32,000 bases of DNA from Candidatus Saccharimonadota bacterium (lineage in GTDB: Bacteria > Patescibacteriota > Microgenomatia > UBA1406 > GWC2-37-13). The stretch spans positions 870,001 to 902,000 of the forward strand of contig MGBH01000001.1 in the NCBI GenBank assembly GCA_001790095.1. Direction: 5' to 3'. Positions 10,623-28,501 of this stretch are shown here, in pieces. The notes under the pieces were generated by a model. That model ran no database searches. It was not told the origin of the DNA and saw nothing but the letters and a program-made list of their open reading frames with translations. A program made the translations under genes and the position numbers. Position 1 is the stretch's first letter. Every line of letters starts with the position of its first letter.

Positions 10623-10642
10623 AAAAAAACCCCTTTCGGGGC
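10623..10642 (-). terminator. FMN riboswitch expression platform: GCCCC-GAAA-GGGG hairpin + U7 abutting the start codon
   Basis: The minus strand reads UGCCCCGAAAGGGGUUUUUUUAUG. CCCCGAAAG is complementary to CUUUCGGGG on the 5' side of the aptamer P1. The GGGG could also act as the ribosome binding site. Confidence 0.5.
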
Positions 10643-10656
10643 AAAAAAATAACAAC

Positions 10657-10776
10657 ATTCTTTCTTTATACCCGACTATAACGGTCGCTGTGGGAGTTAC
10701 ACCCACTCATCCTCGCCCAAAGGGCGGGTCGTAGAGTATACTACCGATCATGAATTTCATAAAACCCCGAAAGAAT
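10657..10776 (-). promoter_or_regulatory. FMN riboswitch (RFN element)
   Basis: The minus strand reads AUUCUUUCGGGGUUUUAUGAAAUUCAUGAUCGGUAGUAUACUCUACGACCCGCCCUUUGGGCGAGGAUGAGUGGGUGUAACUCCCACAGCGACCGUUAUAGUCGGGUAUAAAGAAAGAAU. It matches RFN blocks CUUCGGGG..UGAAAUUC..ACCGGCGGU, AGCCCGC, GAU..GGUG.AAUUCC..AGCCGACAGU and AGUCUGGAU..AGAAG. P1 is UUCUUUC/GAAAGAA. Confidence 0.85.
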
Positions 10777-10823
10777 TATGTAAAGAATACGTAATATATT
10801 TAAAATATGCAAGTAGATTTATA

Positions 10824-21329: not shown

Positions 21330-22364
21330 TCACCCAGAGTCGAATTTATCAAGCAGATTCATCGCTTCTCTTTTTTTCTCTTCTGTTACTTTGACCACAA
21401 CTACCCCTAAATCGTATTGTCCGTATAGGACAATTGAATCAAGAGGTGCAAGAAGGATACTGGGCAAGGCTATAAGATCCTCTTCTCCTTGGATGACTAG
21501 TTGTTGAGTATGTCTATCCTTAAACCATCTGTCACGCAATACTCTTACTTGTTTTATCACAGATTGGCTAATAGTTCCCGGTGTATTGCGATATTGTCTT
21601 ACATTTTTAACTTTTAACTTTGAACTTTGAACTTTTGAAAGGGGCTCTCTACGACTCTTATAATCAATCACTGCCACTGATGGCTGAAATCCTTCTCTCC
21701 ACAAGCTTCCCGCAATGATATCTCCTATAGCAATAACCATGGATGGGTTGTTCTTTTCAATAGTATGTATTATCTTGTGTACGATTTCCTTTCTTTGATG
21801 ATAAGTACCGCGGATTAGGTCGCCCAACGGCTTTCTTAATAAGGTACGAAGTCCATCTGGCAATAAAAGTGGCGCTTTGTCAATAAGCCACTTATAATAA
21901 TTATTTCCGCTTCTATCTATATCCCCATAGCGTATCCGATCTGATGAAATCACCTGCCCGTCCCCCCCTTTTACAAGAGGAACAACGATTACGTTTAAGG
22001 GCTTCATATGAGCTTCTTTCCTTTTTTTATTTATGAGTAAGGCTCCGTTTTTTGTTGCTGATGTCACAAGTATTGCATCAACACTCATATCTTTAAGTGA
22101 ATTACCATACACGTTCGTTAAAGATATTAGTTTTATTTCTTGAGAATTTTTTTTAATGGTGGATATATATTCACGTATTCCTTTTTCACGAACTGCGTAT
22201 GTTTCAATGGTGCTTGCAAGTATTTTGTGCCTATATAACAGCTCTGTGGTGATACCTATCGTCACTTTTTTACCTATTGTTAAGGCTGTTTTGAGAAACA
22301 GTTCGTGCCCAGCATGAAAATGGTCAAATGTGCCACCGAGAATAATATGATTGTATTGTTTCAT
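21330..22364 (-). CDS. fusion of archaeal-type phosphopantetheine adenylyltransferase (N) and DUF359/GTP-dependent dephospho-CoA kinase-like domain (C)
   Basis: N-terminal nucleotidyltransferase motif GGTFDHFHAGH plus SSDRIR. The C-terminal half (LRKPLGDL...VIAIGDIIAGSL...PSVAVIDYKSRR...NTPGTIS...VIQGEEDLIALPSILLAPLDSIVLYGQYDLGVVVVKV) matches, from memory, the DUF359 pattern. Confidence 0.65.
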   Translation of the reverse strand: MKQYNHIILGGTFDHFHAGHELFLKTALTIGKKVTIGITTELLYRHKILASTIETYAVREKGIREYISTIKKNSQEIKLISLTNVYGNSLKDMSVDAILVTSATKNGALLINKKRKEAHMKPLNVIVVPLVKGGDGQVISSDRIRYGDIDRSGNNYYKWLIDKAPLLLPDGLRTLLRKPLGDLIRGTYHQRKEIVHKIIHTIEKNNPSMVIAIGDIIAGSLWREGFQPSVAVIDYKSRREPLSKVQSSKLKVKNVRQYRNTPGTISQSVIKQVRVLRDRWFKDRHTQQLVIQGEEDLIALPSILLAPLDSIVLYGQYDLGVVVVKVTEEKKREAMNLLDKFDSG

Positions 22365-22373
22365 GGTATTTAT

Positions 22374-22445
22374 GTCATCCCGGCGAAGGCCGGGATCCAG
22401 GTGCTTGGATTCCCGTCTTTCCCAAAGGGAAGTCCTTGACTCACG
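22374..22445. repeat. GC-rich intergenic element made of three consecutive hairpins (REP-like)
   Basis: Hairpins are CCCGGC-GAAG-GCCGGG (22379-22394), ATCCA-GGTGCT-TGGAT (22395-22410) and CTTTCCC-AAA-GGGAAG (22417-22432). They sit in an otherwise AT-rich divergent intergenic region. The element resembles the GTCATxCCCGCGAAxGCGGGAATCC-type palindromic elements seen in many environmental genomes. Confidence 0.4.
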
Positions 22446-28208: not shown

Positions 28209-28235
28209 ATTATGTGTTTAATTATTAATAAAACT

Positions 28236-28259
28236 AAAAAACCCGCCTTCTTGGCGGGG
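28236..28259 (-). terminator. intrinsic terminator 2 (attenuator of leader unit 2)
   Basis: Minus-strand CCCGCC-AAGAA-GGCGGG followed by UUUUUU, 28 nt upstream of the ATG at 28208. Confidence 0.7.
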
Positions 28260-28281
28260 TTTGTGTTGTTGATTTAAACCA

Positions 28282-28359
28282 TCACATTATCACCCGCCGA
28301 TAGAGCAGTTGATAGTAGTAATACGAAACTTGTCTTGCTAATTTACTCTTATTTTTCAT
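28282..28359 (-). CDS. Tyr-rich leader peptide 2 (MKNKSKLARQVSYYYYQLLYRRVIM)
   Basis: 25-codon ORF with 5 Tyr codons, including UAU UAC UAC UAU. Codons 21-23 (CGG CGG GUG) duplicate the 3' arm of terminator 2. Confidence 0.55.
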   Translation of the reverse strand: MKNKSKLARQVSYYYYQLLYRRVIM

Positions 28360-28368
28360 ATTTGGTAC

Positions 28369-28394
28369 AAAAAAAATCCCCCGCTTAGCGGGGG
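28369..28394 (-). terminator. intrinsic terminator 1 (attenuator of leader unit 1)
   Basis: Minus-strand CCCCCGC-UAA-GCGGGGG followed by A+U8. Confidence 0.75.
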
Positions 28395-28419
28395 TTATTC
28401 ATGCAAAATTACCTCCCGC

Positions 28420-28464
28420 TTACAGCTGGAAGTAATAATATGTTGAGGAAAAATGTGTTTTCAT
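28420..28464 (-). CDS. Tyr-rich leader peptide 1 (MKTHFSSTYYYFQL)
   Basis: 14-codon ORF with UAU UAU UAC. The stop codon is followed directly by GCGGGAGG, a near copy of the terminator 1 3' arm. The ATG lies 9 nt after the -10 box, so the mRNA is essentially leaderless. Confidence 0.55.
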   Translation of the reverse strand: MKTHFSSTYYYFQL

Positions 28465-28473
28465 GATTTTTTT

Positions 28474-28501
28474 ATTATACACCCTCTTTTCTTTTTGTCA
28501 A
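28474..28501 (-). promoter_or_regulatory. near-consensus sigma70 promoter driving the leader/tyrS operon
   Basis: Minus-strand TTGACA (28501-28496), 16-nt spacer, TATAAT (28479-28474). Confidence 0.6.

Follow-up and report, generated by a model that had tools for sequence, protein, structure and literature searches.

Candidate tandem tyrosine-codon leader-peptide attenuators upstream of a GNAT-like gene and tyrS in Candidatus Roizmanbacteria, at a position occupied by Tyr T-boxes in relatives

How might a bacterium of the candidate phyla radiation (CPR) adjust the expression of its tyrosine--tRNA ligase gene (tyrS) to the supply of charged tRNA? This question is raised by a leader on the minus strand of a 32-kb stretch of contig MGBH01000001.1 (positions 870,001 to 902,000; the whole stretch is referred to as the window), which precedes a gene for a 354-aa protein followed by tyrS. 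A preliminary description of this leader had listed a promoter and two consecutive units, each composed of a mini open reading frame (ORF) with a run of tyrosine (Tyr) codons, a G/C hairpin and a U-tract, and had likened their logic to attenuation in trp, his and pheST operons. All these elements are present at their positions, as confirmed by rereading of the strand. The evidence on the attenuators is computational throughout and was drawn from the window and from loci of related genomes. On this evidence, the leader quite probably consists of two ribosome-mediated transcription attenuators in series, both of which sense the supply of Tyr-tRNA(Tyr).

The leader begins with a sigma-70-type promoter (TTGACA at 28501-28496, 16-nt spacer, TATAAT at 28479-28474), which agrees with the consensus in 12/12 positions; this and all further features of the locus lie on the minus strand. 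Unit 1 contains leader ORF 1, which starts with ATG, encodes MKTHFSSTYYYFQL in 14 codons (28464-28420) and includes a YYY run specified by UAU UAU UAC at 28440-28432. Its intrinsic terminator, CCCCCGC-UAA-GCGGGGG, has a stem at 28394-28378 with 7/7 G-C pairs and is followed by A and U8 (28377-28369). Between the Tyr run and the terminator lies a copy of the terminator 3' arm (AGCGGGAGG, 28420-28412), denoted region 2. It has two alternative partners: the stretch of Tyr/Phe codons, with which it forms a 1:2 hairpin, or the terminator 5' arm, with which it forms the antiterminator (AGCGGG with CCCGCU). The GCGGG core of this pairing (28419-28415) is situated 15 nt after the first nucleotide of the last Tyr codon and begins 3 nt after the first nucleotide of the stop codon.

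Unit 2 repeats this organization. Leader ORF 2 also starts with ATG and encodes MKNKSKLARQVSYYYYQLLYRRVIM in 25 codons (28359-28282), with a YYYY run specified by UAU UAC UAC UAU at 28323-28312. Region 2 of this unit (CGGCGGGTG / CGGCGGGUG, 28299-28291) is located within the ORF, its core starts 16 nt past the first nucleotide of the last Tyr codon, and it again copies the terminator 3' arm. The terminator, CCCGCC-AAGAA-GGCGGG, has a 6/6 G-C stem at 28258-28242 and a U6 tract at 28241-28236. The antiterminator is formed by GGCGGG of region 2 and CCCGCC of the terminator 5' arm through six G-C pairs (shuffle p = 0.001).

These elements stand out from the rest of the window. The promoter is the sole 12/12 match to the sigma-70 consensus within 32 kb. 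All-G/C hairpins followed by a U-run were found only three times, namely as the two leader terminators and as the terminator of a flavin mononucleotide (FMN) riboswitch (10642-10629). Mini-ORFs of 8-45 aa that start with ATG and contain YYY are represented on both strands by leader ORFs 1 and 2 only; YYY itself occurs 11 times over the six reading frames. The leader as a whole (246 nt) folds with a z-score of -3.9 relative to shuffled sequences. The FMN riboswitch (73 bits, 10629-10778, minus strand) lies upstream of the 9717-10706 gene, and since a G/C hairpin and a U-run serve as its own terminator, control by intrinsic terminators works in this genome.

Geometry of the promoter is informative as to how the first ORF would be translated. 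Its ATG is located only 9 nt past the end of the -10 box, and therefore the mRNA of unit 1 is probably leaderless or nearly so. Nearly all genes in the window lack a Shine-Dalgarno sequence, thus mini-ORFs without a ribosome-binding site are normal for this genome. A -10-like box 5-10 nt before ATG was found in 5 of 21 window genes, as compared with 4.3% of all ATGs, which suggests that leaderless mRNAs are widespread in the genome and that tyrS, which has such a box of its own (see below), is served by a separate basal promoter.

We wondered if similar leaders also occur in related genomes, as the preliminary description had proposed to check. Homologs of the 354-aa gene were used to sample 20 loci (L002-L021), of which L004 and L007 are the same in sequence and L005 and L006 lack upstream DNA. 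Tyr-run mini-ORFs with terminators were found before the orthologous gene in 11 distinct relatives' loci (L002, L003, L004, L009, L010, L012, L013, L015, L016, L017 and L018), in which the adjacent protein of the 354-aa family is 46-56% identical to that of the window. Most leader loci contain two units and L009 contains one; together with the window, 22 units from 12 loci were available, and all unit counts given below refer to this set. Examples of peptides encoded in relatives are MKNVVSAKYYYLQP, MKIDFTVTYYYFRP, MKKTLCVNMAYYYLS, MNKSQIIKQSSFYYYQLLYGG, MNNIKIFLTAHSLYYYNYYPAGGVY and MKKFTVTSQYYFYYSKLSLAGSIVKKS.

All 22 units have an ATG in frame with the Tyr run, a frame that is open to or past region 2, and a terminator downstream. 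The Tyr run is preceded by 8 or 12 codons in 17 of them. First-unit ORFs of relatives are 14-21 aa long, with YYY at codons 9-11 in eight out of ten, and the unit-1 ATG is preceded by TATAAT or TATACT at a distance of 7-12 nt (mostly 8-9 nt) in 11/11 relatives' leader loci. In second units, the motif (S/G)(Y/F)YYYQLLY(G/R)(G/R) is conserved in nine loci. Otherwise, N-termini and lengths of the peptides vary freely, while RNA spacing and arm copies are conserved. Differences within the runs consist of UAU/UAC or Tyr/Phe changes. Leader units persist even where the upstream gene is a different one. A generic screen for mini-ORFs with any residue run and a strong terminator, performed over about 170 kb of the window and loci, returned these units and one T-box terminator only; leader peptides for other amino acids were absent from the same scan of the window and all loci.

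Several peculiarities of individual loci were noted in the course of this survey. Unit 1 of L013 (L013:3731-3842) is degenerate: it encodes MRNLNNNSYSYSDPKPGGGCC with Y-S-Y only, plus an NNN run, and its contiguous region-2 helix is the weakest observed (4 bp). This unit may be decaying or switching its specificity. In L017, the public call of the orthologous gene of the 354-aa family (1845-2978, 377 aa) starts within the leader, between the stop codon of unit 2 and its terminator; this over-long call is an annotation error that arose because the leader went unrecognised. Further, GC-rich hairpin repeats resembling miniature inverted-repeat transposable elements are inserted between units 1 and 2 or between unit 2 and the gene, and leave the units undisturbed. 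They were located at L002:3717-3840, L016:1708-1800, L003:3704-3845, L017:1625-1770, L004:987-1110 and 1247-1400, and L010:313-455 and 580-700, with sequences such as ...GGATCCCGGCCTTCGCCGGGATGAC and GGCTCCGTTTCCGAAAC...GGATTACGGAGAC. A similar repeat is present in the window at about 22372-22440 (minus strand), upstream of the gene at 21330-22364. A repeat search at seed 9 detected no inverted repeats in the inserted GC-rich elements.

Because alignments of units by MAFFT put the terminator arms out of register, arms were extracted from each unit separately and evaluated with shuffle and permutation controls. Region 2 was defined per unit as the segment, downstream of the Tyr run and upstream of the terminator, that forms the best helix with the terminator 5' arm. 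Its 6-nt core is the same as the core of the terminator 3' arm in 15 units and differs by one mismatch in six more. Three variants of the arms exist (CCCGCC/GGCGGG, CCCCGC/GCGGG(G) and CCCUCC/GGAGGG), and region 2 matches each of them; the GGAGGG variant is found in second units of the L002-like type and, separately, in L018. Region 2 fitted its own terminator better than the arms of other units in all of 20,000 permutations, and p-values of the region-2 helix obtained by shuffling of individual units were mostly below 0.02. The claim that copies of the 3' arm at or just before the stop codon can form an antiterminator is thus backed by covariation of three strands as well as by permutation.

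Region 2 starts 14-18 nt past the first nucleotide of the last Tyr codon in 19 units. Relative to the stop codon, its position ranges from -24 to +5 over the whole set. Since spacing to the Tyr run is narrow and spacing to the stop codon is wide, the conserved distance is that to the Tyr run. A ribosome reaches, at its leading edge, about 12 nt beyond the first base of its A-site codon. The observed distance just exceeds the leading edge of a ribosome that has the last Tyr codon in the A site.

It was further asked whether the antiterminators could compete with the terminators at all, since non-competitive pairing would have spoken against attenuation. In the window, antiterminator domains were calculated at -15.9 (unit 1) and -16.0 kcal/mol (unit 2), and terminator hairpins at -13.6 and -11.5 kcal/mol, respectively. 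The antiterminator equals or exceeds the terminator in stability in 20/22 units. To predict the effect of ribosome position, the transcript was folded in the state that precedes synthesis of the 3' arm, and the 28-nt footprint of the ribosome was kept single-stranded; this replaced earlier folding in which all RNA upstream of the ribosome was masked, which was too generous. When the ribosome occupies the second Tyr codon, the terminator 5' arm pairs with region 2 with a probability of about 0.5-1.0, and when it occupies the stop codon this probability falls to about 0, in 21 of the 22 units. In the window, the values change from 0.86 to 0.00 in unit 1 and from 0.99 to 0.00 in unit 2. Together with the 11 relatives' loci, these predictions support the attenuation logic originally proposed.

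In unit-1-type leaders, RNAalifold recovered both the terminator and the 1:2 hairpin. The latter is conserved as pairing of the Tyr/Phe codons with region 2, with the stop codon in the loop. Owing to this hairpin, the complete 1:2, 2:3, 3:4 layout of the trp attenuator is present.

From the anatomy, conservation and folding computed above, we infer translation of the ORFs, the transcription start site, kinetics and the response in vivo as follows. Judging from promoter geometry, transcription would start just upstream of the unit-1 ATG and a ribosome would load at or near the 5' end of the transcript. When Tyr-tRNA is plentiful, the ribosome should pass the YYY or YYYY run, reach the stop codon and cover region 2. 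The terminator 5' arm would then be free, the G/C hairpin with the U-tract would form and RNA polymerase would terminate. When Tyr-tRNA is scarce, the ribosome would stall in the Tyr run. As its leading edge reaches about 12 nt past the A-site codon, region 2 at 14-18 nt would be left exposed, and could pair with the terminator 5' arm ahead of transcription of the 3' arm, which would result in readthrough. Unit 2 would repeat the decision, so that only transcripts that pass both checkpoints would reach the downstream gene and tyrS; two checkpoints in series would multiply the dynamic range. In several relatives, the hairpin of Tyr/Phe codons with region 2 in unit 1 may favour termination of an untranslated leader.

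The remaining loci provide independent information on the signal. T-boxes with scores of 95-107 bits, above the Rfam gathering score, were detected at the orthologous position in L008, L011, L014, L019 and L020, which represent more divergent relatives, and the specifier loop of each of them reads GAA-N-UAC, i.e. contains a Tyr codon. In L021, T-box motifs are visible by eye, with no match at the Rfam gathering score. No Tyr-run mini-ORF was found in any leader that has only a T-box or a T-box-like element; conversely, the window leader gave no T-box match in Rfam at the gathering threshold or at E <= 1. L018 carries a hybrid leader (L018:1092-1514): a truncated T-box-like element (40 bits, sub-threshold) with a UAC specifier context and its own terminator is followed by a Tyr leader unit encoding MGKISKQNLYHFYYYPSGGLY, which also has its own terminator, with arms and region 2 of the GGAGGG type, and stands before the orthologous gene. 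In L019, a tRNA-Tyr(GUA) gene (L019:1647-1731) is placed between the Tyr T-box and the orthologous gene, apparently inside the T-box-controlled transcript. Since a Tyr T-box substitutes for the leader units in relatives, this position senses charging of tRNA-Tyr.

To estimate the order of events, a neighbour-joining tree of the 354-aa family was constructed; it is rough and of unrooted quality. T-box loci are placed on its deeper branches and leader-peptide loci form one derived clade, with L018 inside. Taken with the quality of the tree, this topology suggests that the leader may have replaced the T-box.

We then examined which genes would be subject to this control. The first of them is the 354-aa ORF (28208-27144), which encodes a sequence-orphan protein. 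It is identical to proteins deposited for Candidatus Roizmanbacteria, in accord with the CPR-like origin that had been assumed for this DNA. The family comprises 28 homologs, the named members and loci of which belong to Candidatus Roizmanbacteria, except for one metagenome-assembled genome labelled Gammaproteobacteria. No match to Pfam, NCBIfam or PDB sequences was obtained by profile search, including models of GNAT acetyltransferases. In the AlphaFold model of the protein (pLDDT 90), the N-terminal part of about 190 residues was recognized by Foldseek as a GNAT fold (E 6e-6, target-normalised TM score 0.5-0.67). For the C-terminal 159 residues, of which a separate model was made (pLDDT 85), no fold match reached significance, the best one (E 0.08) being weakly GNAT-like; a Fem-like double-GNAT architecture was considered as a candidate. 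An AT-rich motif similar to TTTTATTAAT(T)TAATTTTTT is found 5-25 nt before the ATG of this GNAT-like gene in most loci (about 28212-28235 in the window). It is kept even where a repeat element splits it from the unit-2 terminator and does not fit the -10 consensus. This motif could enhance translation in a genome that lacks Shine-Dalgarno sequences.

The second gene, a 375-aa ORF at 27112-25985, encodes an archaeal/eukaryal-type tyrosine--tRNA ligase (NF006330, 363 bits with a cutoff of 220; PF00579), so that the operon does end in the cognate synthetase, as had been stated. The tyrS gene comes after the 354-aa gene in every locus for which enough downstream DNA was available, either directly or with about 0.6-1.1 kb in between; in L011 and L018, this interval harbours an M20 deacylase gene. 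M20-family genes follow the 354-aa gene in L011 and L018-L021; that of L011, the one scanned, is of the ArgE/DapE type. The partner tyrosyl-tRNA synthetase is archaeal-type in the window and L008, and bacterial-type in L011 and L014. On the other side, the gene upstream of the promoter codes for an ADP-forming acyl-CoA synthetase, and acetyl-CoA synthetase neighbours of two types (ADP- or AMP-forming) occur in five loci. The 354-aa protein is clearly tied to tyrosine, and since its gene is controlled by a Tyr T-box or a Tyr leader, a tyrosine-related function is likely on these genomic grounds.

The possibility had been raised at the outset that transcription of both genes starts downstream of the leader. 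For the 354-aa gene this finds no support, as the interval from unit 2 to the gene contains no consensus promoter. For tyrS it is partly borne out: TATAAT at 27126-27121, 8 nt upstream of its ATG, is a candidate internal promoter of leaderless type, and tyrS may also be transcribed from this basal promoter of its own.

This and several other observations weigh against the attenuator interpretation or limit its reach. A TATAAT box located 7-9 nt ahead of the tyrS ATG is a conserved feature of at least 11 loci; with a -10-like box of this kind, the attenuators may chiefly control the GNAT-like gene and add inducible expression to tyrS. The single unit of L009 fails to switch in footprint folding, owing to a region 2 placed 24 nt ahead of the stop codon, and unit 1 of L013 carries Y-S-Y in place of an uninterrupted run. 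Full-length equilibrium folds often still favour the terminator in the stalled state, therefore the outcome must be decided kinetically, as in classical attenuators. Folds of untranslated RNA are inconsistent among units. As the units are homologous, statistics overstate the number of independent observations, and the GGAGGG variant perhaps arose only twice. Finally, Phe codons flank many of the Tyr runs.

The last point bears on the nature of the signal. The attenuators could be real and respond to translation speed, to aromatic amino acids (Tyr and Phe) together or to a ribosome-targeting compound. Phe adjoins the Tyr run in many units (FYYY, YYYF, YYFYY), and for the AroR leader of Corynebacterium glutamicum, which contains Phe-Tyr-Phe, a response to Phe but none to Tyr has been reported (PMC11802643). 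Yet Tyr is the sole residue repeated at least three times in 21/22 units, T-boxes at the orthologous position have UAC specifiers, and the operon holds tyrS, plus the tRNA-Tyr gene in L019; a signal other than Tyr is thus improbable in our opinion. Even less room is left for a chance arrangement, in which unremarkable terminators or insulators would follow the acyl-CoA synthetase gene and the mini-ORFs would be accidental. AT-rich DNA does yield many short ORFs, and YYY is found eight more times in the six frames of the window. On the contrary, the consensus promoter sits between the upstream gene and unit 1, the units persist next to a different upstream gene, the generic screen of about 170 kb returned only these units, and neither the covariation nor the spacing statistics is expected of coincidence, which we find scarcely credible.

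Two further explanations assign the function to the product or to the RNA itself. The mini-ORFs might encode functional peptides, either precursors similar to ribosomally synthesised and post-translationally modified peptides (RiPPs) or substrates of the GNAT-like enzyme, with leaky terminators setting the peptide:enzyme ratio. This was already mentioned as an alternative in the preliminary description, and it is favoured by good conservation of YYYQLLY(G/R)(G/R) of unit 2 as a peptide, with synonymous differences, and by the neighbouring enzyme being an uncharacterised acyltransferase-like protein. But in six relatives the enzyme and tyrS are retained and the peptide is missing, its place being taken by a Tyr T-box or T-box-like leader, N-termini and lengths of the peptides are free to change when RNA spacing and arm copies are not, the GG/RR residues result from translation of the antiterminator strand itself, and Pfam and NCBIfam scans of window proteins detected no RiPP enzyme family. 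We therefore regard functional peptides as very unlikely. A sensor made of RNA only, in which the UAU/UAC run would bind the anticodon of tRNA-Tyr as a minimal T-box, or in which terminated transcripts would act as small RNAs, also deserves little credence. It is true that promoter-to-terminator units of about 95-125 nt resemble small-RNA genes, and rnTrpL is an example of a trans-acting small RNA derived from an attenuator (PMC7968998). Translation is nevertheless indicated by the in-frame ATG and open frame kept in 22/22 units where off-frame stops are common, by the fixed distance of 8 or 12 codons between ATG and run in 17/22, and by a -10 box positioned for leaderless translation. Moreover, T-box and other Rfam models do not match, and the conserved UGGN bulge for the tRNA 3' end is not visible in unit alignments.

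Attenuation governed by ribosomes on Tyr codons is thus the reading we retain, and it can be compared with known systems. The leaders of E. coli pheST (pheM), trp, his and pheA share a leader ORF with cognate codons, mutually exclusive 1:2/2:3/3:4 pairings, an intrinsic terminator and the position of the ribosome as sensor; pheM likewise controls an aminoacyl-tRNA synthetase operon (PMC1262725, PMC11802643). Four of the features by which this class is recognized (leader ORF with a codon cluster, terminator, exclusive antiterminator and a gene related to the cognate amino acid, here tyrS, downstream) were found in silico; translation of the leader ORF and increased readthrough at low levels of the charged tRNA are predicted. 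In contrast to these leaders, the codons are those of Tyr, the attenuators number two, each complete and following one another with a single amino acid as their signal, ORF 1 is probably leaderless, Shine-Dalgarno sequences are absent, the host belongs to CPR and the first gene is an orphan GNAT-like one. Similarity to these leaders is absent both in sequence and in Rfam searches with the window leader, in which all hits had E >= 0.2: Phe_leader scored 20 bits (threshold 55), Leu_leader 18 (50) and Trp_leader 18 (41), His_leader and Thr_leader stayed below the gathering threshold, and relaxed thresholds gave chance-level matches only.

Classical attenuators before synthetase genes outside Proteobacteria have been proposed by comparative genomics, namely the leader peptides predicted for trpS and leuS of Streptomyces (Seliverstov et al. 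2005, PMC1262725), which differ in amino acid and phylum. The same study lists tyrosine genes as T-box-regulated, and detected no conserved RNA structure of regulatory type ahead of tyrosine operons in Actinobacteria. The Tyr T-box of the Bacillus subtilis tyrS type (RF00230) resembles the leader units in its signal (charging of tRNA-Tyr), in its terminator/antiterminator output and in genomic position, and differs in that tRNA is bound directly, whereas the window leader would sense it through a translating ribosome. The aroR leader of C. glutamicum likewise uses a Tyr codon in a peptide that controls an aromatic amino acid gene by attenuation; unlike the units described here, it is reported to be Phe-responsive, contains a single Tyr codon and precedes a biosynthetic gene, not tyrS (PMC11802643).

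The mgtCBR leader of Salmonella is known to combine two short ORFs in tandem, mgtM and mgtP, each belonging to an attenuation-like switch; mgtP senses Pro-tRNA through its Pro codons (Lee and Groisman 2012, PMC3641672). The mgtCBR ORFs sense different signals (ATP and proline), while both units of our leader would sense the same amino acid and each possesses its own canonical intrinsic terminator. Leaderless sensory ORFs in which one codon is repeated in a run, and which are placed at the 5' end of polycistronic mRNAs and signal by stalling of the ribosome, have been reported in mycobacteria as polycysteine short ORFs (Canestrari et al., bioRxiv 10.1101/834739). These elements act on translation by unmasking a downstream ribosome-binding site; those of the window have intrinsic terminators, and there is no Shine-Dalgarno sequence to be masked.

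No Tyr-leader attenuator in tandem in a CPR-like genome was known to the preliminary description. This holds as far as tyrosine and host are concerned: no Tyr-codon leader attenuator was found in Rfam or in searchable full-text literature, whose coverage omits most subscription journals, and the searchable literature, again incompletely covered, contains nothing relevant on T-boxes or attenuation in CPR/Patescibacteria. Tandem attenuation by leader ORFs as such, on the other hand, has a precedent in mgtCBR (PMC3641672). The mechanism itself is classical; what is new is its specificity for Tyr, the host lineage, the apparent replacement of a T-box and the orphan enzyme linked to tyrosine. Notable features are the two same-signal units in series, the probably leaderless first ORF and the exchange for a Tyr T-box among relatives, one locus being a hybrid.

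It is tempting to put these observations into one evolutionary scenario. In one lineage of Roizmanbacteria, a Tyr leader attenuator would have originated de novo, undergone tandem duplication and displaced the ancestral Tyr T-box, with L018 as a surviving hybrid; its main target would be the two-domain GNAT-like enzyme, with a role in tyrosine supply or related to Tyr-tRNA. We offer this scenario tentatively and rate its chances at a little under even. If it is true, one sensor of tRNA charging was naturally swapped, in front of one gene, for another that is unrelated in mechanism, and a GNAT-like enzyme, often accompanied by an ArgE/DapE-type deacylase, acts in organisms thought to be devoid of amino acid biosynthesis.

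Leader-peptide attenuation has been described or predicted for several amino acids, among them His, Trp, Phe, Leu, Thr, Cys and Pro, and searchable sources list tyrosine genes as T-box-controlled; a conserved case based on Tyr codons fills this gap. Ribosome-coupled control appears to operate in reduced CPR bacteria, on apparently leaderless mRNAs without Shine-Dalgarno sequences, and by means of mini-ORFs and terminators that are missing from gene calls. With T-box, leader peptide and a hybrid of both at one orthologous locus, the family provides a tractable case for the study of regulatory-RNA replacement. Two independent sensors of Tyr-tRNA and linkage to two types of tyrosyl-tRNA synthetase mark the GNAT-like family as tyrosine-related, which gives a lead to the function of an orphan CPR gene.

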